Part shown: positions 26,166-59,904 of the stretch, one piece after another
How the letters are laid out: every line of letters starts with the position of its first letter
How positions within the stretch are numbered: position 1 is the stretch's first letter
Assembly (NCBI GenBank): GCA_050084515.1
Contig: CM114271.1
Span: 6,758,001 to 6,822,000 of the forward strand
Length of the DNA: 64,000 nucleotides
Direction of reading: 5' to 3'
Source of the DNA: Blasia pusilla
Lineage: Eukaryota
Position numbers and translations under genes: made by a program
The notes under the pieces: generated by a model
Told to the model about the DNA's origin: nothing
Seen by the model: the letters and a program-made list of their open reading frames with translations, nothing else
The model's database searches: none

Positions 26166-27946
<1,781 letters not shown>

Positions 27947-37159: not shown

Positions 37160-38030
37160 TTGAAAATCCATGTCAAGCAGTTCAAGTCCATTGCCTGACC
37201 CAAGACATGACGTCGTGATGCCTCTTATAGTGATGGTACTGCCGTCACTCTTATGGGAAATCCCATCGCTCGCTCTTGCTCATTGGCATTGGGCTCCACC
37301 AACCTATGTACTTGGTCATCCCAAACCAAGCCAGGTCCGGCCTCCTTGAATGCATAGGAAGCAGGAAAACTCACCAATGTGGGAAAGGCTGCCCGTGGCC
37401 TGCCATTCCTGTTGACCACAGTCAACGGCAGTTGATCATCTAGCCTCATTGCCTGTGATCGAAGGCCTGGATCCAATATGGAATCCTCCAACAAATCGGA
37501 GGGGCGCTCCACTCTTGCATATGCCCTCTGTAACACCTCATGTGGTACCAAGTTTAGAAACGTGGAAAACTCACCACGCGGGACCTCGAATCGCCCAAAA
37601 TTGGCACATTCCTCTAAATGTATGTTGGAGAACAAGACTGATGCTCTTGTAAATATCGCAAGATCCACATCATCTCCCAAAATAACCTAGACCCAGTGTC
37701 AGCTAATCTGCTACCTCATCCAGCACTCGATTGGCCCTAACACAACCAACCAAAAATGACCAAGTCTATGGTCCCTACTCGCTCCAAGTCCTGCGCCCCC
37801 AACAATGAAATGTCCCTCGGTAGGGAACTCTTGTAACCCTGAATGGCGGACGTAGACAACAAGTTGAGAAAACGGAGGCGTAATAGCGCCATATGGTGAA
37901 GTGAAGCGCCCTTCGCAAGATCATCAATCTCCACATACAAGTACTGTTGCACGCACACTCCAGAGTGCAAAACAACAGCTAACCAAGTGCTAATCCCTCC
38001 AAAGAGATCCAACGCCAGAATACCCTTCTC
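37160..38030 (-). pseudogene. DNMT3-like C5 cytosine methyltransferase domain, disrupted, copy 2
   Basis: ALDLFGGIST..YLYVEIDD..DISLLGAQDLERVGTIDLVIFGWLC (ORF 37737-38192); EQERAMGFP (ORF 37225-37680). Motif VIII region partly deleted. Confidence 0.85.
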
Positions 38031-38399
38031 TAGGATGCACCACACAATCAAGGTGGTGTCCAAAGGGTTCATAGCATCTCTCTTGGCTACATGGGGTTTG
38101 TTTGACCCGTCACACTCTGGTGCAAACGTCTCGCTCCACACGGTTTGCACATGCTCAGTGGCTAAGCGTCGAAGCTCCTCAGACGAGCCCAATGCGGCAC
38201 CTCTCCTCCACGGATTGATACGGCTACCATGACACTCCTCTCCATAGAAATGTCAGGAACAGGAGTATCCTCTGCATGGACATGTCCCTCAATCAAATCA
38301 CCAGGCCAAGTAATGGCATTGCTAAATGCTGCTAAGGTTGCCATCTCTCTTGGACGTCGCTCGATCATTGCACTTGTGAATCGAACGGGTAATGAGCTA

Positions 38400-40760
38400 A
38401 GGCGCCCATCACCTGACTGTCATCCTGGTCTGTAGGATGTTGACTCCTCCCAATAATCAAGGGAAAAGCCCATTGGGTATAACACAGCTCCACCAACCAA
38501 GACGTCGTATGACTCTCCATCAATCACTATCGCCTTGGCTCGCACCACAGACTCATCTGTAGGATGTCCCGGGCGAATCCTCACCATGACCTCTTGTTGG
38601 GTGATATACTGTGTGGTACTCGCTCCACCCAAGGCTGTCTGTATTCGGAATGGAAAATGCTCCACGTCGTCTCTTTTCAAGCCCAATCCTCTTAATTATG
38701 CTTTCCCCAACATCAGGTGTTGCGCTCCTGAATCCAACAAGATGCGCTGCGGACTAAAAGCTCTACCTCCAGGACTCACCAACTGGAAGACCTCTCCCCG
38801 GTTATCCAGCAACACAACACCATGAGAAACCATGGCATGCTTTATCGCAGGTCTAGCGGGCATCTCCGCCATCCTAGCAGCCGAAGCCTGCCATGAATCT
38901 GACGTGGATGGCCCAAGCATCCGCTCCAAGGGCATGTCTATCACCTCCTCTGCAATCACTTCTAAATGTGATGCAGGAACTCCAACTCCACGATCACATA
39001 GCGTAGTGGCCAGCCGAAAACCTCGGCGGGCGTACCTCCCAATGTCATAACATCGGAAGTAGAAAATAAAGGAGCGCGATACACAACGATGGCCACCCCC
39101 AACAACGTGCTCGACACATGCCCCTCATAAGCATCAAAAATATATATCGTTGTATGCGCTTCTCCCATCGCCCTCCGTGCGTGCACACCAACAATATCAC
39201 CAACTCTTGAGGAACTTTGATCACGACCCATCGATGGGGTCCTCATTGCCTCGGACAACGTGAAAGACTCAGGAAGCCTAGTCTGTTTCCTGGCTTCCCC
39301 TCGCTGTGGATCCAACTCTGCGGTTGCTCCATGCGTCACAACTGCGGTGGCTTCCATCTGGACAACCTCGCACATCCAACCAGGATCCTCCATATCTCTC
39401 GCTGCTTCATATGATGTTGATGCCACGGATCCAGCATCAGGTAACCTCAATGCCATAGCGGCAATCTGCTCATGTAGCTGCTATATCTTAGCAGCCATCC
39501 CAGCCTCACGCCCGACATCTCCCTCGACGCATCTAGATGGTGGGACTCTACCTCCTCCATGGGCAGCTCCACCACCCTATCGAGAAACTCCAGCTCCTCG
39601 CTCCCCAACGGGACCACCTTGTGCACGATCTCTAGGCCCACCGGGACCGGCTACTCACTCTGGTGCCCTCTCTAGTCCTCGCTTCAGACGTCACTCAGGA
39701 TGTAAACTGAAACATCTGACGCATGTATGACCATACCTTTGACAATAGTCATACTGATAACCTCTTGGTGCAGCACCATCTCCTCTCCCATGCTGAGGCA
39801 CACGTCCATGACCCTAACAAGTGCAATCGCGTTGATGATGGGCTCCACCACATGACCAACAAGTAATCGTAGGCGGCTGCTGCTGAGTCGCATATGAAGG
39901 CACAAGTCTCTATGACACGGCCTTGCGGTATCCTCCCTGAGATCGTGGTGCCACAGTCGACCTATCTCGGAGTTCACGTTGCTGCATTGGTGGTGGAGAC
40001 AATCGTGACTGCTCTCGCCCAGAACCCATGGTGGCTACGCTCTCCTCTGCCATGTTGCACTCAATATTATCGGTGGTCCTAAAAACATCTATCAACGTAG
40101 GGGAGGTGTTCATAAGGAGCACCCCCTCCCGCATCCGTGTCCGTAGGGTCCGGTCCAGCATCGCGTACCATGATTGGATAGCCTGAGCCTCTGTCACCCC
40201 CTGAGTGACGTTGATCAACCGGTACAAGCGAGTATAAGCCTCATGCAAACTCTCACCCGGGCACCTTTGAAAGTCGTGGATGCTCCGCAACTTCTCTGTC
40301 CGTACCCCTTGGTAGCTCGCCCTCAACTCAGCGAAGAACTCAACCACGGGGTTGAACCTGGGACGAACCCGACTAGACGGTGCAACTGTTCCAATGCGAG
40401 TGACCCCTCCTAAAACATGAGTAGTGGAAGAGGAAGTAGCCTCTCCTGACTCCTCCTCCTCATATGGGAATGGCTCTATCCATGACACATAGTCTGGGTC
40501 ATCGTAGAGTCGCCATGCCTCAATCTCCTAGGCATATCTGTGGGAGAACTCATGGTAATCGTCCATGGGAGCCCCCTCTAAATGCTGGAACATACCGTTC
40601 CATGTTGTAAACGGATTAAACTCTCTAGAGTTCCTGGCCTGTTGTGAGTCACACCAACTCCTTAACTCCGCAATGAAGTCGTGTAGCTCTATGGTGCCTA
40701 CAGCACCCGAAAACCTACGTGGTCCTCTACCCTGGTCGTCCATCTCGTACACCCAATTGG
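38400..40760 (-). pseudogene. Gag and aspartic protease, disrupted, copy 2 (5' part continues at 53862-54070)
   Basis: RILLDSGAQHLMLG, YDVLVGG; gag ORFs 39910-40488 and 40528-40752 are homologous to copy 1. Confidence 0.8.
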
Positions 40761-41169
40761 GAGGTGCAATAAGAGGAGAGGAAGAGAGGAAGAGAGGAAA
40801 CTACCTTCAACCGAAAGAGACACTTTTTTTTAAAGAGAGTTTCCTGTGATTTGAAGAGAGTTTCTCTTGGGTTGAAGAGAGGAAACTTTTTGTGTGAATT
40901 TTTTTGCACTTTTCTACTCAGTTCTTAAGCACTCCCACAGTTTTCTTTTTCTCATTCACTTTTTGGCAACCCATTTGAGTCCGACGAGTTGCAAATTACA
41001 CAAAATTTAGAAAATTGAAAATCAGTGGAATCATAAGTTTGGAACCAATAACTTTTTCCATCCAAGGTCTGGAAAAAATCTATCATTTGCTCTAAGCTAA
41101 ATAGAGTTCAAGCTCAAAGTGAAGGTTGTGGAAAAATGAAAGTACAATCTAAAACCTCATTTTTCATCC

Positions 41170-44100
41170 TCAAAGTGGTTTGTTTAAAATACTTCGCACT
41201 TCTTTGAGGGACAAAATTGGTTGGTGGATTCCTACTCCTACCTCCGACTCTCTTAAAACTACAAGCAACACATAGTACATGTGCTTATAAGGGAAATACC
41301 TTTTCCCACTTGTCTCTCTTTGGACAAAGTCATCACATGAACATGTGGGAAAGCAACAGATGTGCACCACATACATCCCTATGACACTTGAATTTACAGT
41401 GTTGTTCCCAACCTAATATATCCTTCCTATTCCATTGCCAATCTGGACATCTTTCGTGGCGATGATCTCCATTTTTTCCTCCCGAGTTGATGCAATTCGC
41501 TTTGCTCTCTCCACCGTTGGCCTATACATTTTATTTCTCTTCACCCCATTTCTAGACTCAAAGAGAAATACTGGATTGAAATCATCCACCTTCTCCGAGT
41601 ACATGTTGACATCAATCTTGGGTTGAATACAAAATGCGAAGGTCTCTGTAATGTGAACATGCTCTAAACTTCCTCAGTCTACGAGTATGAAACTGGCACT
41701 TGTAAGATTGTCCACTTTGTCTTGAGTGCAATTCGTACCTATGGCAATGGGCCAAATCGTGGGGGTATTCCCTGGAGCTCTAATGGCAGCCGGATAAGAC
41801 TTTCAAAAAGCCCAAGATTCATTTGGGCAGAAGAAGTACTTCAATTGATTCCCAGTCCTCGTGAAATGATCAAAGGTTTTGAGTCCCCAAAATCCAGCAG
41901 TGGTCGTCCAGTCCTTGTACAGTTCTTATTTAGGAAAGTGCCGCATGCTCTCCTAATGCCATAAGATCCTGCCCTGCAAGTGGATCCACGTCCAGGGTTG
42001 CTCCGAGATATATGCCACCGTTTGAGGTTGCAATCCATCGCAATGACCGGAATCCCATATTGTTGAACCACCCCAGCGATCGGATGTTGCGAACTTCCAG
42101 CAACTAAGGGCTTTTGAAAAAAAACATTCACGGATTTTGGAGAAGTTACTCCATCACGGATTTGGGAGCAATCCGGGGTCTCCAAATACATGGGCGGCGT
42201 GATTTCCTCGTCCAAATCAATCACCGGGTTCCTCGATGTTGCCTCTTTACCTGCGTGAAGTCAAGATACTTATCTGGTCTCCACGAGTCTCGCTCGGACT
42301 GGTCTACCACCATATGTATGGGACGTCTTGAAACGCGCCCACAAATATCCCCACCAATGTGTACGTCTTGCTCCAGGGAAGTTTCAACTACGCACCAATT
42401 GAAGGCTTTCACATAGAGTTTCTCATCACCCGATCTCACAGCCGCCTTGACATAGAGCTCGTAGATCAAAGGCCCCCCTTCCTTTTGTTATGCCTTTTGT
42501 GAGGAAGATATGGGATGATGCAGACTATAGCATTGCTCTTGCCTGGTCTTGTTGGCATGCTTCCATAAGTGAAATTCTTTGGCATGCTTGTGACGACCTC
42601 CAAGAGGAATGAACACTTTCTGCTCCACTTGTGTTGGGGCAAAGGGTATTTTCATGAATGTTCAATCCCTGCAACAACGGCAATATGAGAAGGGAACCAA
42701 AATAGCTCCAAAGTTAGAGAAAAAAGCTACATGTTGGAACTACACGGGTTGCAAGTCAAAGGTATCCCATGAATGACTCTGTGACCCGTCAGGTTCCGAT
42801 GTGTTGCAACACTCACGAACCACCTACTGCAACCCATCCGATTCCGAAGGGTTGCAAGAAACTTTGGCCACTCCAAGTTGGAAGATCCAAGTGCAAGTCA
42901 TCCCAAACCCATCCGGGTCAAATTATTTGCAGGCCTTGTATACATGCAACTTGCATACTTTTATTTGGGTTACACCAACATTCTTGATGCAACCCGTCGG
43001 TTTCCGACTGGTTGCACACTTAGGCAACCTGTCCGTTTCCGACGGGTTGCACACTCGGGCAACCTTCCCCATCCGACAAGTTGCTTGGTTTCTTCGGCTT
43101 GAAATCCCTATAGTGCCCGCGCTTCTCAACTTGAGCTGCAACTTTTCAAACAATTCTCAGCGTGAGCTTGACAAGACAAAATAGTTAACTCACTTGCCGC
43201 ATGAAGTTTCCCCATTATCTCATTCGTACAGTCCACCAACTCATCCAAGAGCACAACTCTTTGTACTTCCCCTCAATTGCATGCTTCCTCCACCACCCAT
43301 GAAGTTCTTCTTGGCATTCCATGGCATGTTTCAAGGTTTTGTAGTCCTCGCAGCGTTGGAGTAGAGTGACATGCTCTGTCCTCTTATTCTCCTTGATGCA
43401 AGATTTGTTGTACCAAGTCACAGACTCTTGCTAATGGAAAGCATCCAACCTTTCCCTCTCCGGTTGAACCTCTCCACCCTAGAACACTTCCCTGATAGCA
43501 ATCCACCCAGGTTGTGCATTGTCCCCCACGAACCCATAAATTTCCGGAGGTGGCCTTTTCTTTTCCTTCACCACCTCCAATAAGAGTAACCAACATATCT
43601 TCAAACTGCCAACGTCTTCTGCTTTTACTTCACAGACAAATATAGTTTTGAGTCCCTTCTCCACATGGTCATAAACATGAGCACCCATGGTCAACCATCC
43701 ATTCAGCACTCTGTAGCAAATATCAAAGCTTACCCAGCTTCTGTGAAGATCTTCCCCTTCATTCATTCGATCTATAATATCGAGGTCACTCGACGGTCCT
43801 GTCGTTGATATTTTTGAAGATATAAGCCCTGGATCCTTCGCCTCCTTGGCCCATGAACTGCCATCTCTAAGTGAATGGAAATGTGGAGTTGGCCTTGATT
43901 CTGGAAATGACATCCATTTCGGCCATCTTTCCATCCAGTACCTGTATTTGACGTAGCAAATTTCGAAAACATTCAGGATCGGCGAGAAATGCGAGATTTT
44001 TCGTGAGTTGTTTCTCCTCAATAGTCGTGATCTCACCCTGCCCAAGAATTCCAAGCAGTTGTTCACAAATTTGTGATGTTGTTGTTAACTTGATCACTCC

Positions 44101-45210
44101 GGGCTTTGATCCCGGAGAGTTTCTATAGACCTCGGCCACTTTCTTTGCCACATCCTCCTTGATATATCTCTGAATTGCACCGGTCACCGGATGAGTGTGG
44201 GAGCCAATATGAACTGCCAGCCTTGTGTACTCTGACGTAGAACTGAAGTCGTGGACAATGAAAAAAATGTATGCAGGATACGCTCCAACGTAGAAAGGGG
44301 ATGCTTGACAATGAAGACATCGATGGCCTCCCGGCGGTATGGTCGCACCGACCTCATATGGAGTTTCTGCATTCTTGGGGGGAAATTGCAACATATTGAC
44401 TCGCCCATTACGCTCTAGATACAGGCATGCTGGACTTCTACATTCCAAGGCTCCAACGCATTGGCGGCGGGAGACAATCCAAGGACCACCTGGAATTGAA
44501 GCACTAGTCCGTTGAAGCCTGCACCATCAATGACAATTAGACTTTCTGTCCATACCCTTCAAGCGTCCTCCATCTTTCTTTTGAGCAGGAGCAGCAAGTG
44601 GAGGCAATTCAAAATTGCAATTATCATCGTACGTGGGCGGCAACTCGTCGACAAGAACGTGCTTGAACATTTTAAAGGGTAGAGATGATAGCAAACTATT
44701 GCCTGATACTCGCAAGAGGAACGAGTAGGCGGACAGAGGGCCCGGTTGATGTCCGACAGATCCACTGAGGTTGACGATATCCGGAATGTCTTCAGGAAGT
44801 ACAAAATTATTACGAACGTGTGAAGTTGGAGTCGATGCCGGATCTACTGAGCTAGGAGTTGCAAACGTAGAGCTCGGTGCACTAGGAAATTCTCGACCGT
44901 CTACTTGGGAAACAGAGGAATTCAGAGGCAAGCCGTAAACTATGTTTTGACCATTTGCTAGAGGTAGGAGATTCCATACTTTACGGTGTGCAATCACTAG
45001 CTGGACTGTCTCACCTATTATGTCCTCCGTACCGTCCACCCTTACATCCTTGGACACAAAGATGGTTCCCATTTGGAGAAGAAATCGAACTGAGAGAAAA
45101 TTTTCATCCACTGGTATGAAAGACTCACGAGCTTGCGGTCGAACTATTTATGATTGAGGAAGGGCCGCTAGATGATTGCCACAAGTGAGCTTCACATAAT
45201 TATCCATTCC
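41170..45210 (-). pseudogene. MULE transposase with N-terminal GCM/WRKY-like Zn domain and C-terminal SWIM finger, disrupted
   Basis: CRSPAC..CLHC..HIGSHTHP; DDE core WVSFDICYRV..FVGDNAQ..AFH and PNTSGAESVHSSW (~42600-42640); SWIM-like TCSCDDF..PYKHMYYV. Predicted intron 42669-43193 (GTGAGT..TTGCAG). Confidence 0.8.
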
Positions 45211-45778
45211 CAGAAGATTCCACCGGGAGGAGATTGAGATTAAGAATAAGAATGAGAATGAGAATGTTTAATTTATAGTGAATAGTGACTCAGATTCTCC
45301 TGACAGAATTTGACTGACAAGATGCTGTTTGGTAGGTGAGATTGTCATACGGAATGGATTCAATCCTGTTGGAACCTGTCGGAGTCCGATAGGTTGTAGA
45401 ATTAGGGAATCAGACACGTGGGTTGCAAAGCTCATAGTTCCATTTTATGTTAGTGTCCCAATGCGAGTTGCAACCCGTCGGAGTCCGTTGGGTTGGTACC
45501 CCCTTCTTGTCTAACCAATGTGATTTGAGTCAAGATTGCTAGCATCAAACACGAGACATCGCATGGATTTGCTACGACAACCCGTTGGGGACTGTTACGG
45601 GATCCAAAGGTACCTAACCTTGCTTTCCCTTTTGCATCTCGCGTCGATTTCTCTTATTCAATTAACCGTACAAACCGTGAGTGCAGTTTTTCCGTATGTT
45701 GGGAAGTGTCTAACTCCGGGTAGACCTTGTCACCCGTCAGAGGGCAACGTGTTGCCTCGGAACTATGCTTTGTCGCAT

Positions 45779-46215
45779 TGTTACCCGAGGGAGAGAAAAG
45801 TGTGCAACCTGTCGGTATCCGACGGGTTGCTCGGGTTCCTCTCCTTGTAATCCCAAGATGAGGGAAGCGTGTTACCCGTCAACCTCCGACGGGTTGCACG
45901 GGTACCTTGCCTTGTAACAAAAGCATGAAGGAAGCGTGCAACCTGTCGACCTCCGACGGGTTGCGCGGGTACCTCGCCTTGTTATCCCAAGATGAGGGAA
46001 GCGTGCAACCCCCTGGTCTCCAACGGGTTGCGCGAGTACCTCGCGTTGTTACCCCAAGACGGGGGAGGTGTGCAACCTGTCGGTCTCCGACGGGTTGCCA
46101 TGGTAGGATGGATGGATGCAATCCATGGGTCTCGGACAAGTTTCATGGGAAACTCGCTCTGCATCCCCAAGATGCGGGAAGCGTGCAACCCGTCAGAGAC
46201 CGTCGGGTTGGCCGG
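45779..46215. repeat. Tandem array of ~67-bp units, each containing the 27-bp palindrome
   Basis: Units ttgt(t/a)a.cccaagatgagggaagcgtgcaacc.gtc....tccgacgggttgc.cgggtacct.gcc starting near 45779, 45846, 45912, 45979, 46046, with a degenerate unit near 46160. Confidence 0.85.
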
Positions 46216-46534
46216 GTTCCCACGTCCAAAGTTCCATAATGGCCGATACGTCGCCGTCGGTATGACGGTGCGACCCAACGGTCAGCTCAACGGCTCGAAA
46301 AGTGTAAATAGCCAAGGTTTTGCTCACTTTCATTTTTTTTTTCGCGATTGCATGTGCTCTTCCGTGCAGCAGCTCAACAGATACCAAGGGGAGTGAGGAG
46401 GGTGAGGGCGCTTCATCATGAAACGCAAAGAGAGTTGGGTCTAGGATCACGGCGATTCATCGCGAGACCATTCAAGGGAATTTTCGTGCACAGAAAGAGA
46501 CTAGACTGTCGAGGGGGAAGCATTGACGGGAACC

Positions 46535-49500
46535 ATGACGAGGAAAAAAACACAAGCAAGCAAGGTAGGGAGCATCACTCCCAAGTCCATGAGGACTCAT
46601 GTGTCACCATCTCCAAGGCCTCGTTCGGCCAATGAGATAAGGCACCAAGAGATAGAGGAGCGGGAAAGGGAAGCAGATATGCACATGCAGGAGCTTCTTG
46701 CAAAACGTGTTCTGGAGGCGCTCGAAAAACAAAACGCCAAGGCTGAGGCATCGCACGCCTTGAAGACAAGAGTCGTCGATGAGAAACACGAGAAAAAACA
46801 TATGGACGCGTCCGTGAGGAGAGCAGAATGGAAAAAGCAATTGCCATTGAAGAAAGCCCTGCCCATCCAACAGAGAGTGTTGAGATGCACGAAATGTCCC
46901 CGATGAAGTTTGGGGACACCATGAATATAAAATCGGTTGAGGAAACGGCCAAAGTTCAAGTGACGGATGATGAGGCCATAAGGACGGCAAGCGTGGGGAT
47001 GGTGGACATCTCTAAAGAAGCAGGACAACAATCTTCCTCGTCTTTGAGCCCGGCCAAAGAAATCGACCTTTATCGGATCGATGAGTTTCCTGTGGACTTG
47101 CCAACTGCTGTCCCAGAGCAGTTTGCGGGCCAAGACACCGACCCAATCTTTGAGCGGGTAAGAAACGTTTGAGTTATGTGAAGGCCCATGATGCAATTCA
47201 TTGGCAAAAAAGTGTAGTTTATTGACTTGGTCCCCATTGTGGCAGGTTGTTAAGCAGATGGCACTGATGGAGGGCCAAAACATGCCGAGAATTCCACTTT
47301 GCCGATCGCGGACAATGGAGTACATCCGCAAAATTCACTGGGAGGAGGATATTACAAAGGTGAAACAATCGGCAGCGACAACATCCAACGTTGACAACTT
47401 CCCTCTGTTCTATGTTCAACCTTACAATGAACATGGAACCCAAGCGCTGGTGACGAAAGAGGACTTGGAAGCGCTCGATATATTCTGGAGGATGAGAGAT
47501 CAGGAGTTTAGAAGAGCTATTGAGGGGACGCAATTTAGCTAGATGCGGAACCCTTACTTCTTCATCTGGGATGGAAACCACATGTACATGGCATGGACCA
47601 AGTTTGCACAGGAGCGCCCAAATTCATTGGAGGCCCATTTTTGCGTTAAGACAATCGTGCTCCATCCATTTCCTCATCACATGGCAATGGTGGAAATGGA
47701 AATGCATGCCATGAATACGTAAGTTTCCTCTCCCTTAATTTTTATTGGTTCAACCCTTCGGTGTTAGACAGGTTGCATAATTGGAAAGCTTCAATCAAAC
47801 CGTCAGAGTCTGAGGGGTTGTCTGGTGGCCAAGCACACCGGAGAAAGTCGGGATACCGAAACCAGTCCACCATCGACGTGTGTAAAAATGAGTGCATGAT
47901 TTCTATGTTCTGAAAACTTTCGAACTTCGATGAGTTGTTAAACTAGTGGTAACAAATCATCCGACGCCTAAAAGAAACTCGTCAAAGTCCGACCAGTTGC
48001 TGGACTGTCCGCTATTTTGGGATGTTTTTGGCCGAAAGCAACTCGTCAGACTCCGACGGGTTGCATTTTCCCCCACAGGTAGATGGTCAGAGTAGGAGAG
48101 CTTGCTTTTAGGCGTCCAATTTCAGCTTTACAAGGAATTGCGCAACTTGTCGGACTCCGACGGGTTGATACGTGCAGTTTTTTCCGAAAACCAGTCTGCG
48201 AATGGAAATCATTTTACAACCCGTCAGAGTCCGACGGGTTGTAGCCAAGGACTAAAACGGATGGACCTGAAAATCACAAATCCCAGTGCAATCCGTCAAA
48301 CTCCGATGGGTTGCAATTATGTCTCAAAATTTGCGTGTGTGTTGCAATAAGTATAACAGAAAAAAGGTGTTGCGACTCGTCGGACTCCGACGGGTTGCAA
48401 TATTTTTCTCTGTGCTACCATTTCAACCACCAGGGGTTGCAACCAGTCGGTGTCCAACGGGTTGCAGGAATCCGGTAGCTTGCAATAATTCTTAACGTGT
48501 TTTTGGATGTGCAGGATTGTATCCAAGGGGAACGTCACCCACCACTGGATCCAGGATTACGACACGGTGAAAAAGGTGCTTACGACGCACCCAGAAGAGT
48601 ACATGGGGTTCTTGGGCGACTCTCTGGTAAATGGGATGTTGGCGAAGGGGGCTCAAATTAGAAAGAAGACTTGGGAAAATACCTTCATTTCCCAAGCCGC
48701 AACGCGTCCTAGAATGACCATTCACGCAGCCAATGGGAGATCACTGGGTCAGAAACTCCTGGAGGATGGTGTGCTGCCCGCTTTTGGGCCTCTGTGCTCT
48801 CGACACTGATTTTCATGAGTTGGATTCTCCTAAACTCGGAAATTCCTGACAGTGCAAATCTGTGAACGCGGTCCAGAGACACTTTCTCGCCGACCCGACC
48901 CTGTGGATCTTCGTCTCTCTTCCGCTGGCGCTTGATTATCACCTTGATTATCCTTTGTTGGTCGATCTTGGTAAATGAAGGCTTGGGAAAATACCTTCAT
49001 TTCCCAAGATCGCCTTGATTATCCTTTGTTGGTCGAAGATCCAAGCCGCCAAGAAGAGCGCTTCATTGGAACTGGAGCTAAGGGAGAACATGTTTACGTC
49101 TGAACGTGCAAAGTTTATCCAGGCCTTGAGCTCCTTGTAGAATTCCGGGTCAAGTTTGGGGTTCAAAATGGCAATGTATCGCTGCATCTTGCTTGCAGTG
49201 TACTTCGTAGCTGTAGATACTGCAGCATGGATAAACTTTGCACGTTCAGACGCAGACACGTTCTCCCTTCGCTCGAGTTCCAATGAAGCGCTCTTCTTGG
49301 CGGCTTGGATCTTAGACCAACAAAGGATAATCAAGGCGATCTTGGGAAATGAAGGTTTTCCCCAAGCCTTCATTTCCCAAGATCGACCAACAAAGGATAA
49401 TCAAGGCGATAATCAAGCGCCAGCGGAAGAGAGACGAAGATCCACAGGGTTGGGTCGGCGAGAAAGTATCTCTGGACCGCGTTCACAGATTTGCACTGTC

Positions 49501-52362
49501 AGGAATTTTCGAGTTTAGGAGAATCCAACTGATGAAAATCAATGTCGAGGGCACAGAGGCCCAAAAGTGGGCGGCACACCATCCTCCAAGAGTTTCTGAT
49601 CCTGTGATCTCCCATTGGCTACGTCGTGAATGGTAATTCTAGGATGCGTTGCGGCTTCTCGAGAAGTCCATGCTCGTGGATCTTCAAGCGGAGCTTAAGA
49701 AGATTGAGCCAGTTTTGGAGGAAGCAAACCTAGAGACTGCGGAAGATTTTGAGCTATGGCTTGATGACATCCGAGACAAGCCCACAAAAAATCCAAGCTT
49801 CAGGATGATGTTCAAGAATCACATCCTCCCTCAGGTAGACCTAGATGAAGAAATTGACCCCAAAAAAAGGGATTTCGCAAAGAAGAAGCGGGGTCTTCAG
49901 GAGCAGGTGGCCGATTCATCTCGACAAAGAGCTGCCCAACGGATGGTGTACAGGTACCTCATCAATTGTAAGAATGCAGGTACCTCGCAAAAATACCGAC
50001 ATCTTGCAAATTGTGGGCTTCTCCGCCTGATGGAGAGGCATTTTCCATGTACGACATAGAGATGGCACATGGCATGTCCGACTGGGAGGTTGAAAATTGC
50101 CCAATCTGGTTGGACTTCAACGACCCTGAGGACATAACCGAAAAAAATCTACGCCTGGTCTATGATGCAGTGGTCACAGGTAGGGACGACATTCTGAATT
50201 TCGTGCTGCGTGAAGATTTTTTCGAAGGAGATGCGGAGGAGCAAGCCCTCAAGACAGCGGAGCTGGTGTCCAAGGTCATCACCGCCAAGGACAAATCTAT
50301 AGTGTGTTTGAAAGCAAAGGCGAGGGGATTGAAGAATTCGGAGGCCGACTCTTCCAGAAAAGAGGCTGACACCTCAAGGCGAGAGGCGGAATCGTCCAGG
50401 CGAGCGGGGCAAGAGGGCCGGACCAGGTCCTCCGCCAAGAAAACTCCAATGGAGTCTGAGGTAATAGAGACCCCCACAAGCCGACCGCAGACTCGGGAGA
50501 AGCGAAAGCGGGAGGCACCTGGTTCATCCCAAGGAGCAGATAAGGATGTGGAATACACTCCATCATCCTTGGGAAGGCATAGACAAACAACGACCATGAC
50601 AAATGTCCTCATTCAGTTCACTCATCTTGTGGATGAGCTGCAAAGTTTCAGTTCCCAGGAGTCCACACCCGCCATCGACAAATTGACCATGTTGGGACGA
50701 AAACTTCAACAAAACGGGCATGCTCCCTAGACGGTCCATGGGGTGGTCGAGGAGGTGGCGGTGGATCTCCTCATCGCAAATTTTCCCTCTAGGTTTCGCT
50801 TGTGGGACAATAATCCGTCTGATACTGTCCCACACTAGAATGTCCCTCTTTCCTACGAACAGATCGCGCTCTTGTTTTCTTTTGCAGACGCTTATATGAG
50901 TGATAGGGGTTGTTTCTTGGTCTTGATTGGAGGGAGCAAGGATGAGCTCTTCAACCTTCTGTGCGTAAGGAGGTCGCTGAAGTGGAGGACGGCGCAATCA
51001 TGGGTCATTAAGAACAAGTATCCACTCCGATCGGCGATGAGTCAAGTCCGGGTAAGTGCTCTTAATCCAAATTCAACCCATCAGGCTCCGACACGTTGCA
51101 TCTCTCCATGCAACCCGTCAGATCCCAACAGCTTGTGGCTGGGGTGTTGCAATCTGTCTGAAAGCAACGGGTTGCAAATTTACCACAAGTCTCCATTGAG
51201 TGAGTGCAACATGTCAGAATCTGATGGGTTGCTCTTAGCCAACCATGGGTTGCTCTAAGCCAACAACCTGTCTGTTGGCTTTCGACGGGTTCCTCGTGGC
51301 AAAAAAAAAACACTTACACTTGTAAAACAACCCGTCGGACTCCAACTGGTTGCTCTACTGTTAGAACTATAGGCCAAGTTCTTATGGGTTGGTAATCAAC
51401 AGGGACTAGAATGCACTATGGACGTGTTGCACATTGTGTCTCCATATTGAGAGTAGACCAGCCGTCAAGTAGCTCTTTCTTTTTGCTAACATTATTTCCA
51501 ACCTGCTTCTTTACAGATGGACCACTTCTTTGTCTATTGTTTTGTTAGGCCCGAGCACAACTTCCACGTGTTCCAGATCCCGGATCCAGTCGATCCATGC
51601 TCCGATGGATACAACTTAGATAGTTTATACAATTCCCCCCTGGGAATTTACATGCAAGACGGAGCCCTTACTTGGAGGAAGGGAAAAGTCCCCTGCCTTG
51701 ATGCAAATGCTCATCGAGCTCTGTTCAAGGCCGAGTGACTTGGTCTTCGAATTAGTGGGCCTATCAGGGGCGAGTATCAGAGGTGTTTGCAGAGTGGGAG
51801 GAACATTCTCTGCCTTGAGAGAAGGAAGGAACTTTATGACCTTTGCAAAGAGGCAAGGCAGATTACGACAGACTAGTGGGAACATAAAACTCTCCTCCAA
51901 AGCCGAGAGCTCCGGTTCTAACCCACCATTGATAGTGACACCATCGTCACTTCCCACTTTTCTGAAAATCGGGAGGGCAAGGCCGATAGTAATTCTAGAA
52001 GAGCTCTCGGATGATGACAAGTGAGTTCAAAGAACTAAAGGACCCAGCTTGCCTGAAACGTTTTGGAGTAGGGATCTATTGGTTTCCAAGGATGGAGCAC
52101 ATATTGATACAGGATGGGTATCACCTTGTGGAGCGTACAAGATTTACTGCCGAGGAAGGCGGTGGGACTCAAATCAGGTTACATGGGACCGTTATGGTGT
52201 ACCTGGGGGGGGCAAGGCTCTCGAAATTCCCCAACATTTTTGATCCCCATCTACAATCGGCCAAAGGAGCCACTTGTATCCCAAGACATTCCTTTTGTGC
52301 AGGAACCTAGGAGAGTTAGGAGTAAATTTGTAGATGACGAGGCTGAAAAAATCATAGACTAG
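46535..52362 (+). pseudogene. Transposon accessory gene: ParB/Srx-like domain fused to N6-A/N4-C DNA methyltransferase-like domain, disrupted
   Basis: RIPLCR..FYVQ..FFIWDGNHMYMAW (47285-47600); VDLLIANFP..LFSFADAYMSDRGCFLVL (50761-50925); REKSPALMQMLIELCSRPSDLVFE..SGASIR/CLQSGRNILCLE (51680-51820, one frameshift). Predicted introns 47719-48514 and 51052-51516 (GTAAGT..CAG). Confidence 0.65.
48694..49657. repeat. Long inverted repeat (arms 48694-49121 and 49228-49657, ~106-bp spacer)
   Basis: The arms are reverse complements with scattered substitutions; mirror ORFs 48709-48942(-) and 49349-49636(+) share IIKRQRKRDEDPQG..HWLR. Confidence 0.92.
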
Positions 52363-55300
52363 ATCAAATGTACATTTCCGAGCTTCCCTCGGATGTAATA
52401 AAGGAAAAAAAATTTTGAACCATGATGGTGTTTGTAAAAGTTTGCTGAATATTTTTTTTGGTTTTGTCGATTGTGTTGGTCTATCTACTCAGACTGTTTA
52501 TTTTGCAACCTCTCTGATTTCGACAGGTTGCAACTTTTCACAATATTTTAAACCACTTTCAGGCAACCTGTCAGATTCCGAAAGGTCGGCGGCTTGAGTG
52601 ATCCGACTCTTTTCTTGTTAGTCCAACTTTTGAGGTATTCTTGCGGGCTTCTTCACTTTTGTCTTGTTCCCCTATTATCGTCAAACCATTCTTCTCTAAT
52701 TCTTCTCTTCTCTAGGACGTGTTGGATTCCTACTACCTATCGGATTGCCATTTGGGATTCCCAACCTGTTGGATTCTCATGGGGTGCAAGGCGAAATGGA
52801 ATCACTTCTCAAGATCCTTCTTTTGTTATTGTGTGCTTGCTTGCAAGGGATGCAACCCATCCGATTCCGACGGGTTGCAAAAGTTGCAACCTGTCGGATT
52901 TTGACGAGTTGGAAGGATTGTAGCTTCTCGGATTCTCAGATTTAGGATGTGAATGAAGGAACATGGGTGCGTCAGTTCCTCTTTACTCCTAATAGCTAAA
53001 TATCTTTTGCTTCAATTATCGTCTCGTTTGATCACATTTTCTTCTTGATCAGTTCCTCTTTACTCCTGATAGCTATCAATCTTTTGGTTCAATTGTCGTC
53101 TCGTGTGATCACATTTCTCAGTGCCAGAGAGAATGGTGAAACCAAGTTGTCAAACGCACAAAAGTCCATGGTATACTTTGTGCATCCATTCATGAGCCCA
53201 CATCATCAAATGATGTAATGAAAGTCTCCGGTTACCATGAGTGACGAGCGATTTATTCTGTTGTGGAAAACCCCCCTTATGGATGAGTATTGATGCCTTC
53301 TGCAAGAAGAGTCAACAATCATTTAAAGGCATTTCCTTTTGCCTTTCTTTTGCCCCTTATCGATGAGTATTTGATGCCTTTTGCAAGAAGAGTCAACAAT
53401 CCATAATGTCAACCACATATTCAGAGAAGTTACACCTTGAAGGGCACCAGAGTCAATTGAGACCATAGTTAGAGTCTTTATTTGAACCTTTCATTGAGAT
53501 GAAATTGCTACTTCTGGTCAAATTATTTGCCAATGGTCCTCCAACAATAATACCCTTGGGCACAACTTACTGTAGACTTGGACAAGAAATGTGAAGAAAA
53601 TTAGGCTCACATGGAGAGTGATGGAAGAATGTTGTAGTGGTCTTATGATGTCTACTTGTTTTTTTGCCCCTTGGAAAACGGAGGTTACTTTAGGCCCGAA
53701 TGTGGTCCACTTGCTACTCTCTTCTAAAGATTTCATGAATTTTAAAGCAATTTTTTTTTTCAAATATGTCAAAAAGTTTTGAAGAGAGTAGGCGGATACT
53801 CCCTCTTTTTTTTAAGAGAGGCTATCCTCTCTTCCTCTCTCCTGCCAGATTACCAGCCCTCGCCCAATTGGTAGGACCACTCAATATGTACGGTGGATCA
53901 CTAACACTTTCCTCTACACGCTCCCCCTTGTCTGAAAACAACACAAAAGGAGATCGAGGTGGTCTCTCAGGTGGAGACCCTCAAAACCTCGCACCACTCC
54001 GGATAAATCCTCTAGAGTTACTCTCGGGTCCACTACCTCGCCTCTCAAAATCGTGAAAGGACGCCGTAATGGCCCTCGTGCCCCTCTCACACGATCACTC
54101 TCAATCTCGTGAGTAATCCCTCAATCACTCAAACTAAACATGCGGCACTCAATCTACACTCTCTCACTAAGATATGTGATGTGCGGCAACAAGCAGCGTA
54201 GTGCGGAAAATCAACCGATATATCGTCTCATCGACAAACCATCCTCAACTCTGGACATCCCACACACGTCTATGCCCCCTAGACCCATACATCATCGATG
54301 CTCCTAGCATCATCATGAAACCCAATATCCCAAATAACTTCTCGATATCTGGAAATCCCTCACCCGTGAAGGGTAAGAGACCATAATGGGTAACCTAAAA
54401 ATAATGTCGATGTCGCTCCTTGATAACTGCAAATCTCGACCCTGACTCGGTCGTGAAGACAACTCCTCCAATCATCAAGTCGTACTCCTCTTGTACTGAC
54501 GCTGCTCAAACCTCCTCGATGTGCGGTGCAGGTCCAGCGGTCCGGTGCGGCACTGGCGGCTACAAATGGCACGACACTATGGAATGGGTTGCAGCACTCG
54601 GCGACATACCCTCCTCAATCAGAAATTCACATGCTCTGCTTCTTAGTAAAGGAGGGGCTCCGCGATCGAGATGGTGCAGTGCGGCCACGAGTGGCATGGC
54701 GCAACAAGTGGCGGTGCGTTGCCGCTAAGCGCATCACGGCACGGTAATCGATTTTCGTCGAGCGGCTACCAATCACAACATAACAACATGAAATGAAAAC
54801 TCAAACACCATAACCTGCGGTCACCTGCCATCACTGGTTGATGAAAAAATTGCGATGATAGTGGCGGCCAAACCAACGCACTTGGTTGCGGCGCAAGTCT
54901 AAGAATCAACGGTGGTCGTGGAGGACCCTCCACTCCGTAATGGCGGAAATGGCAACCAAAGGGTGGACAACGGGCGAATGCGACTCTGAGCAGCGCTAGG
55001 CGGCGGCGGCGGCCGACGGTGGATGGTGTACCATTGACAGTTGACCGTTGATGGTAACAACCGACTGTTGATGGTGACGATGATAGTTTACCGTCAACGG
55101 TGGACCGGTGATAGTGACTATGACGGCGGTGGCGAGTTTAGGGTTTGAACAATTTAACCCTAAAAATTGCCTAGCAATGGTAGTTTTGCAAGATTGACCA
55201 TAACGTTTTGCTCACAATTCTACATTGTGCACCGTTTGTTGCACGCGTGCACAGCTTCACGATCTAGGATAGCGTCAAAAAATATTTGGAATCAAAAATT

Positions 55301-56777
55301 TGAGTAAAAATTGACAGGGACTGTCATGAAGCCCAATGTCTCTTTCTCGTACACAAAATTTGGCAGCGCTTCCGCGCTGATTTCTCCCAATGAAAATGTA
55401 AAACATGTGAGAACACAAATCAGAAAGCTATATGGTGCTCCAGAGAGCATTGGAATGGGGCAACCCGCCCCCATACTCAATCCCTATAAAAAATTGGGCA
55501 GCGCTTCCACGCGTCACTCTTCCACACAAAAAATCGGCAAAAGAAACATCACAAGTAAGCGGCTCTTGCTCTGGTGAGCACTCCCATGAACCTCTGAACG
55601 GGGAATACGATCCCCAGCCTGCAAAAACAGCAAGTGACGAGCGAGCTCCCCATGAAGCTCTCTCACTCACTCATTATCTCTTTGTAAAATAAGATCAAAT
55701 CTCTCTCACAAGACTATAGTTCTCACATGTGTGCACTCTCACATGTGTATCTCAATGTCAAACCAAACCCACTCTCCTAATGAGATGCTTCGGTTACACA
55801 CACAAGGCAAGCAAGACCATAGCTCTGTCGCCTCATGCTAAGAGGTTCAACAAAGAGAGAATGAGCTCTCAAGCTCTCTCTCCTTGAGGTATATCTCTCC
55901 CCTCTCCCAAGCTCTCTCCATGGTAACCTATGCTCCCAAGTCACCTCCTTGGCTCTTGACCTAATGTAGGAGGTCAAAGGCCACTTACCAAAAAATAGAA
56001 AGTTGATCATATACTCAAAATGTTATTAACTTAAAATAGTAAGTTCCTCAATATGGCTCCAAATGAGCCAAAACGAAGGGGAAATCTACTCTCTCAAGTT
56101 TTCGGGGGCCTCAGCACGTCATCCTCGACCTAAAAGCATGTCCTCCACTACTCACAAAGGCGCTCTACTAGATCTCATCGATCTATCCTAAAAGATGTGA
56201 CACTTGGTTTCCAGCAAACCTTCAGTGCATGTGTTACTAAAAAATCGGGGTTATTTAGCATCTCCGTCGATTCTACCCGCATTTGGTTTGTGTCTGGCTA
56301 TAATCATTTTAATATTTCGTGCTTTTTTGTTTGGAGGCCTTGTCCTTGTTGGGCTATCCTGACTTGCACTATGATTATGCTTATTGTGCTTACAACGGTC
56401 TTTCCGTAGCTTCTTTGGAGCATGTATGGCGCTTAGGCTGCACAAAGAGTCAAACACCCAAGACTTTGAGAACATGATGTAATGACAAGAAGTAGGCGTG
56501 GGAGAAAGTAGATCAACATGTCTCGACCGATGTGGAAAGAGCATTAATACTAACACGCGGGAGTAATTAGTTCTCAAAGGACAAAAATTATTTTAATCCA
56601 TCATATGGTCTAGAAATTCACATCGGAGGGTTCAGAATTTTGCAGAATAATTTGTATTCTAGAGCCTTTCCACTCGAGGCTTAACTATTGTGGGGGCCAT
56701 AATTAATTGGATAGTTCAAAATTGATTAAAAATGGCCCTTGAAAATTTTGAGAGTTTAAAATGGAAAGTAATTTAAA

Positions 56778-56804
56778 CGCGTGCATAGCATGGGCTTAGG
56801 CTAG
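56778..56804 (+). mobile_element. Helitron-type 3' terminus (hairpin + CTAG|T)
   Basis: cgcgtgc-ata-gcatggg imperfect hairpin, then CTAG (56801-56804) followed by T. Confidence 0.45.
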
Positions 56805-56919
56805 TTTATACTATTCTTATACATCATCTTTTCAAGTTGGGATATTTTCACTAATCTTCATGTGGCATTTTAGGGAATTCTTACGATTCAAAAAATTGAC
56901 AGTGGAAAACGGAAAACTG

Positions 56920-57088
56920 TGTGGCTCTTATCCCCATGAGCACTCCCATGAGCCATGAAGTAAGGAACATGCTCCCCAACCTGCAACAAAGAGTGAGCAC
57001 CATCAAGCTCCTCCATTATAGCTCTCAAATACTCATTCTCTCTTTGGAAATCACGTGGATCTCTCCATTAACAAGGTCTCACAAATGT

Positions 57089-57149
<61 letters not shown>

Positions 57150-57591
57150 AAACCAAACCTACTCTCCTAATGAGAGGCTTGGGTTACACACACAAGGCAA
57201 AGAGGACCATAGCTCTGATGCCTCATGCCAAGAGGTTCAACAAACAGAGAATGAGCTCTCAAGCTCTTTCTCTTGGAGGTATACCCCCTTCCATCTCCCA
57301 AACTCTCTCCACGACAACCTACACTCGCACATCAACTCCTTGGCTCTTGACCTCTTGTAGTGGATCAAGGGCCACTTACCAAAGCGGAAAGTCGACTATA
57401 CTCAATATGGAAACTTACTTGAAATAGTAAGTTTATCTATATGGCTCCAAATGAGCCGAAACAAAGGGGAAACCTGCTATCTCATATTACCCGTGGCCTC
57501 AACAAGTCATCCTTAACTTGCTGAGGTTGTCCTTGAGTATCTTCAAGGATGCTCTACTAGATCTCGTCGATCTATCCTAATAGACGTGACA
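56920..57591 (-). mobile_element. Diverged 5'-end fragment (A block + leader) of the same retroelement family, with internal (CT)n expansion
   Basis: Ends tctatcctaatagacgtgaca at 57591; contains ctccccaacctgca and gagcactcccatga leader motifs like 55560-55640. Confidence 0.8.
57090..57147. repeat. (CT)n microsatellite
   Basis: Perfect dinucleotide run of about 29 units. Confidence 0.97.
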
Positions 57592-59904
57592 AGATACTCT
57601 ACCATTATTCCTCGCCTAAGAGTTCAAGAGTGGCAGGAGAGGCAAGTTGAGAGTTTGCGGCAACCATTAGCTAGAGAGGCTTTGTCAAGATGAGTTGATA
57701 TTACCTTGTGTTTGTTAAGTTGAGTTGAGATTGAGCCAAGTTTATATAGATTTGTGAGTTCAAATAAGAAAAGGTACATTTAGGGCTAATACACATTGGA
57801 TTTCTAAGTTGTGAGGCCTATATATTAGTTTCAAGAGCGGTTCATGGGAGTTCACGCCATCTCATTTTGCTAAGAGTTTGGGCGTCATGACCCTTGTAGC
57901 CAAAACGTGTGACAATGTAGAACATCAAAACTCTAATGGGCTCACACTAGGATAGAAGCGCGTCAAAGTCTCTAGAATTGGACATGAGTTGTAAATGAGA
58001 TGCAAGCCTTGTTGGGCATCTCAAGTAATGATGGTCGTGACCTAGTAGAACAAGACCAAACACCAAGCAGGACTCAAGAGGAGCTCGAGTCCCACAAGAG
58101 TTGGATGCCAAGGGACTTGGAACTTGACTAAGCGTTTGGAGATTCACGGAATTTGTGGTCATAACCATTAGACCCAAGAAGCATTTGGGATGAATAAGAT
58201 GGCGTTCGGAAGCTTAGGAGAAGAAAACTCCAACGCTATAACGATGAAGAAAAATGCATGACCAAAGATTGAAAAATCATTCCTAAACAATCAAAATCAT
58301 AGTTGGGTTGAGGGCCACAAGAAGCGGCCTAAAAGGACTTTCCCAAAAGGTACGGAGGGGATGGAAATCTCTAAAACTAACTATAAGGGGAAGGGTCTCC
58401 AAGGGAGTTTGGGACCCGAACCCTACCTTGGGAGCCATGGAGGTGAACCAAGGGCACAAGATGGATTAAGAGGTTGGATTCCGGGTGTGGAATCCAAGCC
58501 AAGTCCAAGGGGAGTAATTATGGCTATCAACCTTGGACTCATATATTGGGGACGGATGGAGACTCGTTCGAGGTCCATTGGGCAGTTGGGATTGCCAATC
58601 GCAATAATGCCATTCTAGCTTCGTGGACTTTCAAAGAAGCTTGTCCCAAGTCTTTGAGGACTTTCTTGCGTTGGGGAGTGAGGGGTTAGATCAATATCTA
58701 ACCTTGCTTAGATCTATTGAGCTTGGAGGATATCCCGAGTCCAAGACTTGGGATAGGCAAGATTGGTTGATCCAAACAATGACTAATGTGACTATGTTTG
58801 GATGTAGATCATGGAGGAGTGCATGACCTGCTGAATGTAAGCTACCGTAATACATTAGACCAATATTCAAGAGGAAGCGCATGAAATTGGGACAACATGA
58901 AGTGCATGAAATTGAGATATCTTGTTTATAAGTTTCACAAGCGTAATATGAGTGGCGAGAGTGGGTGAGTTTGGGGTAGCTCTCTGGCATCAAGTTCGAA
59001 CTAATCCTTTTAAGGAACCATGGAAGAATCCTTGAATATTCAAGCAATTTCAATTCAGAGTTGTCTAAGGTAAGTCTAAAACTACACCTTTAGGGATTTT
59101 TTTCATCGAAGGACAATTTCTTTTGTTGGTTTTGGAATCCACGTTGAAAATCTTGATGAACTATTTGATAGTATTTTGAGAGGTTGAATACAAAGGTAGG
59201 CAAGAGTATCCTTACGCTCTTTAAAGTTATTAGTAACTTTTAGCGTGGAGTGGGGCCACTCTTTCTGAGAGTTTTTTATGAGTGCCATTGTATGTTGGTT
59301 ATAAGAAAGACAAATTTGGCTTTGTTTAAAACCCATTTGGTTTAAGCATTTTGAGGCAAATTATTGAGGTGAAGGTTCTCTAAGAGCTTTCTCTAGGCTT
59401 TGCTATCGATTGAGCAGATTACGAGTATTTTGTAATATTGGTTGGTGGTATAGAGATGTTTGCCCTTCCTATTTCCTAAATCTTGCGTCCAACTCAAGGT
59501 ATTGTCATTGAATTGAACCAACAAACCAACCTTATAGACGGATCACATTTCCATTCAACACCATGGTAGGCATTTTACCACTAGAATTTCCCAATGCAAT
59601 CCCGCAACTTTTGACGACACCATGTTGTGTAAACAATGTGAAGACAAGGGAAATTTATAACCACATGTGAGAAATCTTGTGGCACAAGCTCCCAACCGCA
59701 GGCCATTACTCTTTCTTGTCCTATAGTATTCGCGAAGTTCACACGACATGCTTTAAACAAACCTTTGCCACGAAGAAGCGAGCAACCAACCTACAAATTT
59801 TCTCGCACCACCACAACTATTCCTTACTTAGTTCCTAATTTTCCTCACCTTTCCTTTCCAATCATCGTAACCTCCACCATTGGCCAATCTATTTTCTCCA
59901 ATTT

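Follow-up and report, generated by a model that had tools for sequence, protein, structure and literature searches.

A decayed gene with a conserved N-terminal domain and a phage-type methyltransferase-like domain in a probable transposon of Blasia pusilla

The closest published parallels to the gene described here are the accessory genes of red-algal transposons and the fusions of ParB-fold domains with methylases in phages. The giant DNA transposons of red algae (Plavaka, Mutator and Zisupton elements) are described as carrying PAG2, in which PF01555 is combined with a SET domain, and PAG3, in which a ParB-like domain is combined with a 2OG oxygenase; the ParB-likeness of PAG3 is weak (HHpred E 0.29), inverted-repeat arrays are located beside this gene, and most copies are degenerate (10.1101/2025.02.11.637652). 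Fusions of ParB-fold and PF01555 domains are reported to be enriched in phages (PMC12704722), and the methylases of the ParB-Tls locus have been presented as the source of a eukaryotic clade (PMC4738411). The locus considered in the present study is located at positions 46535-52362 of a 64,000-nucleotide stretch of Blasia pusilla DNA (assembly GCA_050084515.1, contig CM114271.1, positions 6,758,001 to 6,822,000), which is eukaryotic and plant-like and is referred to in its entirety as the window. An earlier note, based on the letters of this DNA alone, had read the locus as a Mutator-like transposon with a spliced gene for a ParB-like domain fused to an amino-methyltransferase-like domain. We consider it probable that a very abundant transposon of the cut-and-paste type is present in the window as a dead copy, with a divergently oriented gene that combines a conserved N-terminal domain (the N-domain) with a phage-type methylase domain and is conserved in bryophytes.

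Second genes of DNA transposons with related proposed roles have been described in flowering plants. VANC, from the Arabidopsis VANDAL group of Mutator-like elements (MULEs), is described as acting, by proposal, on the DNA of its own element (10.1101/2025.02.11.637652), and MURB of the maize MuDR element has a proposed role in transposition or on element DNA (PMC12973397). Prokaryote-type amino-methylases are also described outside transposons, namely the rotifer N4CMT (PMC8885841) and Marchantia MpDN4MT1a/b, which are sperm-expressed host genes with a canonical TSPPY motif (10.1101/2021.02.12.428880). An inactive PCIF1-like methylase domain is mentioned for the DIRS1 retrotransposon (PMC4738411), and retrotransposons with prokaryotic adenine methylases have been reported (10.64898/2026.05.21.726589). 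In its section on the topic, the 2015 survey of eukaryotic amino-methylases presents no land-plant clade of the kind considered here (PMC4738411); in the literature searched, no transposon gene with a ParB or PF01555 domain was found to be reported from bryophytes or from land plants in general, although plant members may be included among the PAG homologues tabulated in the supplement of the Bostrychia preprint or shown in the figures of PMC4738411.

Like the red-algal genes, the Blasia gene would be a transposon accessory gene, with a PF01555-type domain, a candidate ParB-like domain, inverted-repeat arrays nearby and degenerate copies. As judged by description only, the two cases differ in that the modules are distributed over two proteins there (with SET and 2OG) and are combined on one protein here, and the host lineage here is that of bryophyte-type plants; in the full-length moss relative P0012 (Ceratodon purpureus M758_1G295400, 1147 amino acids (aa)), Pfam finds PF01555 only, and neither SET nor 2OG. 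With the phage fusions of ParB and N6_N4 domains, this family shares the Pfam family and the beta-class motif order of the methylase domain, whereas its gene is eukaryotic, intron-bearing and carried by a DNA transposon, has approximately 500 aa between the domains, possesses an N-domain that fails the ParB profile tests, and has non-canonical motifs IV and I. The likeness to VANC and MURB, again by description only, lies in the position as a second gene of a DNA transposon; to our knowledge, VANC does not have a methylase fold and has no sequence or domain relation to this family. MpDN4MT1 and N4CMT are similar as prokaryote-type amino-methylases in eukaryotes, Marchantia being also a liverwort, while MpDN4MT1 is set apart, by description only, from this multi-copy, transposon-borne family with D-T-P-F, DLPT, DLPK or NFPS at the catalytic motif. 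Finally, in DIRS1 and similar cases, retrotransposons are combined with other methylase clades, in contrast to the DNA transposon with a PF01555-type domain considered here.

Gene structure and relatives in mosses and liverworts

The gene has about five exons and is opposite in orientation to a decayed minus-strand transposase gene. All of the peptide strings quoted in the earlier note were found on the plus strand, and the following layout was obtained:

46535..47157 (+): exon 1, with ATG at 46535, a charged low-complexity N-terminus and donor GT at 47158
47246..47718 (+): exon 2, conserved N-domain, with DGNHM at 47570-47584
47558-47596 (+): peptide FFIWDGNHMYMAW, exon 2
48516..48626 (+): exon 3, tentative; its acceptor is AG, its donor is GTAAAT, and its frame is open and in phase with exon 2
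about 49409..51051 (+): exon 4, middle region and first half of the methylase-like domain, with NFPS at the place of motif IV (50779-50790)
50761-50787 (+): peptide VDLLIANFP, exon 4
50872-50922 (+): peptide LFSFADAYMSDRGCFLV, exon 4
51052..51516: intron 4 (GTAAGT...CAG); copies of the palindrome are located at 51072-51355
51517..51876 (+): exon 5, remaining half of the methylase-like domain, stop codon at 51874-51876
51683-51751 (+): peptide EKSPALMQMLIELCSRPSDLVFE, exon 5
51764-51781 (+): peptide SGASIR, exon 5
51784-51819 (+): peptide CLQSGRNILCLE, in a different frame from SGASIR
51877..52403 (+): 3' stretch, transcribed, probably untranslated region (UTR); transcript ends pile up at 52403

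The splice sites that were checked fit the GT..AG pattern (GT at 47158, 47719, 48627 and 51052; AG before 47246, 48516 and 51517), and with the peptides thus located, the proposed collinear arrangement of the motif-bearing exons on the plus strand, divergent from the transposase-like open reading frames (ORFs), has stood. Exon 1 is without homology support, and the N-terminus of P0012 is acidic and of similar length. Exon 3 gave no significant match to the N-domain profile of the family. No coding support was found for 51877-52362, which looks like a 3' UTR because P0012 stops just past the methylase domain and the plus-strand RNA ends near 52403.

The relatives of this gene were found from both of its parts. 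Exon 2 matched a 138-aa ENA protein, P0003 (33% identity, E 1.4e-11), which carries FFIWDGNHRHQAW, and the two-sequence profile then yielded 11 longer proteins (E 2e-64 to 1e-28), including P0012, so that exon 2 has 12 database proteins in total. The N-domain exon is present in these as many diverged paralogues (P0003, P0006-P0016; 44-88% identity to P0003), most of them ORF calls that extend beyond the exon end into apparent intron sequence, and one 90% cluster of N-domain proteins holds 21 members, which suggests that the family is multi-copy in other, probably moss, assemblies. When 1.84 billion representatives were scanned in full by HMMER with the exon-4 read-through, P0001, only two matches were obtained, namely the hypothetical proteins KAL3687003.1 of Riccia sorocarpa (488 aa, E 1.4e-18) and KAL2653794.1 of Riccia fluitans (305 aa, E 8e-7). 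Both Riccia proteins stop where exon 4 of the window stops, and no longer homologues of P0001 were found among 3681 candidates.

P0012 connects these parts. Its residues 225-382 align to 47243-47716, i.e., exon 2 (tblastn E 4e-17), and its residues 1062-1116 to 51668-51832 in exon 5 (tblastn E 3e-6), on the same strand and in the same order, while residues 388-476 of the Riccia protein P0004, containing the motif-IV region, align to residues 903-988 of P0012 (pairwise E 2e-4). Since the N-domain and motif I match P0012 directly and motif IV does so via the Riccia protein, the exons of the window are taken as parts of one P0012-type gene, and the suggested union of a DGNH-motif domain and a methylase-like domain in one collinear gene is borne out by the same order in the full-length moss protein. 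The family protein, common to mosses (Ceratodon) and liverworts (Riccia), is approximately 1,000-1,150 aa long and consists of a charged N-terminus, an N-domain of approximately 230 aa with FFxWDGNHR, a middle region of approximately 450 aa that matches no known family, and a C-terminal N6_N4_Mtase domain (PF01555); the N-domain and the methylase domain of P0012 are approximately 500 aa apart.

The methyltransferase-like domain and the state of this copy

By sequence comparison, exons 4 and 5 are predicted to encode the two halves of one methyltransferase-like domain of the beta-class N6_N4 type, and these halves belong together. P0012 passes the Pfam N6_N4_Mtase family (30.4 bits against a cut-off of 26.7, E 4.9e-7), with residues 903-1119 covering profile positions 2-217 of 221. 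It also matches four PHROG methyltransferase families, three of which are named DNA methyltransferase (best phrog_67, E 5.6e-6). When compared with five annotated phage or plasmid methylases, all of them stand-alone proteins of 217-255 aa, the C-terminus of P0012 gave an hhalign probability of 98.3% (E 1.2e-14, 196 columns), and the read-through of window exons 4-5, with X placed at the breaks, gave 92.8% (E 3.9e-7, 117 columns) against 0.3% for the reversed control. In a blastp comparison of the same read-through with the C-terminus of P0012, the alignment spanned the exon junction (181 columns, E 1.4e-12). The first half alone, from Riccia and the window, reached 33% (E 4.5e-4) with motif IV in register, which is not decisive by itself, and methylase-fold neighbours of P0004 residues 350-488 in the ESM Atlas are a lead only.

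The order of the motifs is permuted as in the beta class, with the motif IV block (50761-50922) located before the motif X and motif I block (51683-51819), and exon 5 is read as motifs X and I (EKSPALMQMLIELCS...VFELVGLSGAS...GRNILCLE). In the alignments of both P0012 and the window model to the reference methylases, the motif IV block also comes first and the X/I block last. The beta-class architecture proposed in the earlier note is thus supported, through the Pfam match of P0012 and through the alignment of window exons 4-5 to the five methylases. As to its source, outside plants P0012 matched only DNA methylases of phages or plasmids, which makes the suggested prokaryotic or phage origin of the domain plausible.

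The catalytic motif requires separate consideration. Canonical motif IV is (D/N/S)-P-P-(Y/F/W), and this form is absent from the window, from both Riccia proteins and from P0012. NFPS is found in the window, DLPT and DLPK in Riccia, and DTPF, the form nearest to canonical, in P0012. The degenerate motif pointed out before is therefore real, but decay of this copy as its sole cause does not hold, because the intact Riccia relatives have DLPT and DLPK; the degeneracy of motif IV is partly a family trait. This bears on the possibility that the protein is an active adenine or N4-cytosine methyltransferase marking the DNA of the element, with degenerate motifs reflecting nothing but the decay of the window copy, which we regard as rather unlikely. 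The D-T-P-F of P0012, the presence of DIPY at motif IV in two of the five reference methylases (so that a non-proline second position does occur), the adenine-specific methylase DpnA as the best PDB match of P0012 (5hfj, E 0.053) and the good conservation of the motif X/I region between moss P0012 and the window are in its favour. Against it, the two intact ORFs of Riccia, to which exon 4 of the window is most closely related, lack the motif-IV aromatic residue as the window does, so the loss of this residue is not private to the dead copy, and P0012 as well as the window has an altered glycine-rich loop for S-adenosylmethionine (SAM). In view of DIPY in annotated methylases, the moss form may nevertheless be catalytically competent.

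The gene copy in the window is dead, i.e., a pseudogene. It contains in-frame TAG codons at 47540-47542 (exon 2) and at 50728 and 50836 (exon 4), the last of which replaces a Trp that is invariant in both Riccia homologues, and it has at least three frameshifts. Whole-genome shotgun (WGS) reads from a run with the same species label as the window, one hundredth of which was aligned, carry the missing bases in other copies: an extra base at 49988 in exon 4 was present in 81 of 222 reads, and for the frame change at approximately 51785, an extra base was found behind 51785 in 81 of 185 reads and behind 51788 in 63 of 173. The frame switch that had been assumed between SGASIR and CLQSGRNILCLE is real, as evidenced by the latter reads. 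A further frame change is located in exon 5 between 51660 and 51668, and exon 1 requires one between 46783 and 46906.

Additionally, a rearrangement is located at the start of exon 4:

48694..49657: near-perfect palindrome, arms 48724-48991/49357-49624 and 48990-49124/49225-49359, 94% complementary

This structure is an inverted duplication of the gene's own 5' coding part of exon 4 and matches the Riccia protein P0004 on both strands (residues 68-125 to 48882-48712, minus; 68-212 to 49466-49966, plus; 30-47 to 49193-49140, minus). A nested miniature inverted-repeat transposable element or another foreign insertion was considered for 48694-49657 and is rejected, because exon sequence of this very gene is encoded by the arms, in the two opposite orientations.

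The N-domain and its resemblance to ParB

The nucleotide-binding motif of ParB/Srx proteins is (D)G-x-(H/R)-R. The N-domain is well conserved in 13 sequences, with FFxWDGNH nearly invariant and DGNHR in 8 of the 13; the window has DGNHM. Thus, the ParB/Srx-type motif claimed for this gene is present, and by eye the N-domain follows the pattern of the ParB N-domain, but a short motif by itself does not define a family, and the family assignment received no support from the profile tests, all of which were negative. None of the 13 N-domain members matched a ParB-type Pfam family at E<=10, the PHROGs search with the N-domain proteins gave no match, and the PDB sequence searches with P0003 and with the N-domain profile gave chance-level matches only, with neither ParB nor Srx among them. 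The search of viral contigs with the N-domain profile gave 142 pattern matches, none of which was confirmed.

It is nevertheless an evenly balanced question whether the N-domain is a true module of the ParB/Srx fold, the whole gene having come from one phage-type fusion of ParB and N6_N4 methylase with a long insert. Apart from the near-invariant motif, the evidence for this origin is found in profile alignment. Compared with 19 real ParB proteins gathered with PF02195, the complete N-domain gave an hhalign probability of only 0.8% over 14 columns that were off the motif. After the removal of a family-specific insert of approximately 40 aa, a step taken post hoc, the alignment came into the expected register (L..DI.KM / VFYVS / FFIWDGNHR..AW against LA.SI / PI.V / y.iiaGERR.RA) with 1.9% and a score of 20.1, whereas 20 column-shuffled controls gave at most 0.52% and the reversed control 0.16%; the value of 1.9% is itself far below accepted thresholds of significance. 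Among 30 ESM-Atlas clusters neighbouring P0003, DUF6551 was found in 5 and ParB_N in 1 (11% of its members), as leads only, and DUF6551 is described as occurring in fusion with the ParB fold in phages (PMC12704722). Structure prediction by AlphaFold2 gave a mean predicted local distance difference test (pLDDT) score of 42.3 for the N-domain with the 13-sequence alignment and 42.5 for the whole of P0012, values too poor for a fold comparison. Phage ParB-methylase fusions are generally compact, and the distance of approximately 500 aa between the domains of P0012, together with the empty Pfam, PHROGs and PDB profile searches, counts against this origin.

In the six-frame translation of 46000-53000, the N-domain profile detected exon 2 only, at profile positions 29-186 of 266, and this region gave no counterpart of ENSHVK...KFLDYIYS, the latter half of the N-domain in the moss protein. 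A separate lead, a possible N-terminal module common to accessory genes of unrelated giant transposons, concerns DUF3723, which occurs in 9 of the 30 ESM-Atlas clusters nearest to P0003 and which Pfam does not confirm in any of the 13 N-domain members; DUF3723 is described as a conserved accessory gene of the fungal Starship giant transposons (10.1101/2021.12.13.472469).

The element, its copies and the surrounding sequence

The gene region is part of a high-copy mobile element, which also contains a 30-nt palindrome of the TGCAACCCGTCGGAnTCCGACGGGTTGCA type and the decayed transposase gene:

42780..43084: left palindrome cluster, of which 42989-43084 is a 35-bp tandem repeat
43215..45147 (-): transposase-like ORFs, decayed and distributed over several frames (43479-44084, 43867-44526, 44527-45147; others are shorter)
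45370..46213: intergenic palindrome array between the divergent genes; within it, a 67-bp unit is repeated in tandem at 45818-46098 (4.2 copies)
47749..48467: palindrome copies of intron 2
52504..52911: right palindrome cluster

The palindrome has 31 occurrences in the 38-58 kb region, and its half-site occurs 41 times in the 64-kb window against 0.67 expected, with all occurrences within 40980-52898. The sites are located on both outer flanks of the two genes, in the spacer between them and in two introns of the accessory gene. The half-site at 40980 lies just past a retroelement copy (37225-40527).

Of the 35,964 WGS reads aligned, 33,507 were below 95% identity and only 101 reached 99% or more, so that nearly all of them come from other, diverged copies. 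The depth was approximately 750-1350 over the transposase part and approximately 100-250 over most of the accessory gene, with a range of 60-670 over the region of this gene. The window copy departs from the prevalent form of the transposase part at 45285, after which 286 loose read ends were found, and at 43811-43814, where one base at 43811 is missing in 371 of 702 reads.

These data support the mobile-element part of the previously proposed Mutator-like transposon, through the palindrome and the WGS depth, and leave the name Mutator-like without support. MULEs have long terminal inverted repeats (TIRs) and a target-site duplication of 8-11 bp. In the blastn comparison of 40000-46500 with 51500-58000, no long TIR was found, only short palindromes, and the three main minus-strand transposase-like ORFs matched no Pfam family at E<=1, MULE and Transposase_mut included; their D...D and C..H pattern is MULE-like by eye only.

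The transcription data are consistent with two divergent genes. Three RNA runs gave 268-309 reads each, mostly 88-95% alike, and the mates are on opposite strands over the two genes, as divergent transcription predicts, with the first mates mostly on the plus strand over the transposase part.

The reading of a dead transposon copy with its own divergent accessory gene must be weighed against a number of points. No transcript joins the exons of the gene, and no accessory-gene splice joint is among the 15 joints listed (333 further joints exist); the exon-5 RNA reads come from diverged copies with a different upstream exon, as seen from loose ends before 51515, and P0012 comes from gene prediction rather than from transcript sequencing. 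No relevant Pfam family was found on the window exons at E<=10 (10 single exons and 2 read-throughs), motif IV varies between lineages, which counts against a conserved enzyme, and the SAM loop of motif I is ELVGLSGAS in the window and DLSASTGAS in P0012 compared to DPFMGSGTT in DpnA. The superfamily of the transposase is unconfirmed, and the proposal that the N-domain binds the palindromes is purely inferential. Finally, the accessory gene has a depth 5-10 times below that of the transposase part, and beyond 45285 a large number of reads depart from the window sequence; therefore, either most copies are without the accessory gene or the two halves have separate histories.

This last point, along with the lack of TIRs around both genes, could also be explained if the gene were not a transposon accessory at all, being instead a piece of a host gene that was captured in the manner of Pack-MULEs, or an independent element or gene located by chance next to the transposase. 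Such an explanation seems distinctly improbable in view of the palindrome, which occupies two introns, the shared spacer and both outer sides of the genes and is found nowhere else in the 64-kb window. Moreover, the gene region itself is highly repeated, several diverged paralogues exist elsewhere (11 matches and the 21-member cluster), as in a mobile family, and the full domain set is retained, in contrast to a fragment.

If the gene is an accessory of the transposon, its protein would act on the DNA of this element. The 30-nt palindromes in the flanks, in the introns and in the promoter region common to both genes would be bound by the N-domain, and the methylase-like domain could methylate adenine, which is possible for the moss form with D-T-P-F; in the lineage of Riccia and the window, which has lost the aromatic residue of the catalytic motif, the domain would instead be a non-catalytic DNA- or SAM-binding module. 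Either role might aid transposition or counter silencing. A broader scenario, which we put forward as an unlikely one, would have the phage-derived two-module protein in place since before the moss-liverwort split: a ParB-like clamp would sit on the palindromes of the element, and the methylase would write N6-methyladenine (6mA) or only bind, keeping the element transcribed or marked for transposition, with host amino-methylases, such as the liverwort enzymes for N4-methylcytosine (4mC), as possible domesticated offshoots of such elements.

Transposons with their own chromatin- or DNA-modifying tools are rare, and VANC is the only land-plant example acting on its own element at the DNA level that is named in the literature examined. 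If the proposed role is true, the transposon-borne phage-type methylase protein of mosses and liverworts would be a second kind, and a candidate for the involvement of 6mA/4mC, or of a dead methylase as a DNA binder, in the conflict over transposon silencing in early land plants. The near-canonical catalytic motif of the moss form and its loss on the liverwort side would offer a natural comparison of active versus inactive proteins. The yield from the window alone is modest, because its copy is a pseudogene.

Two further observations were made on the transcripts of the gene region. The upstream exon of the exon-5 RNA has the same consensus in all three RNA runs, unlike the end of window exon 4, and the WGS depth over 51517-52403 is 2-5 times that over exon 4; this 3' part may also occur in another expressed gene or element. 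In exon 2, a 35-base block at 47303-47337 is covered by 34-48 RNA reads per run, with unrelated sequence on both sides, and all of these reads carry 47323 C>T and 47324 A>G, so that the block looks like a short stretch common to an unrelated, well-expressed transcript.

The remainder of the window contains a 367-aa open frame at 26166-27269 (-), the apparent main exon of a gene that we take to be alpha-tubulin. Two related retroelement stretches, 13951-17312 (-) and 37225-40527 (-), resemble each other in their gag-like ORFs (16683-17312 and 39910-40527) and in the ORFs downstream of these, and have the appearance of two members of a single long terminal repeat (LTR) retrotransposon family. 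ORFs resembling reverse transcriptases of the long interspersed element (LINE) type, with an ...ADDTHI... motif recognised by eye, are located at 22064-23047 (-) and 30034-30570 (-). On the right side of the element, direct repeats were found at 55758-56202 and 57148-57591, 1.39 kb apart and 80-90% alike in four collinear blocks.

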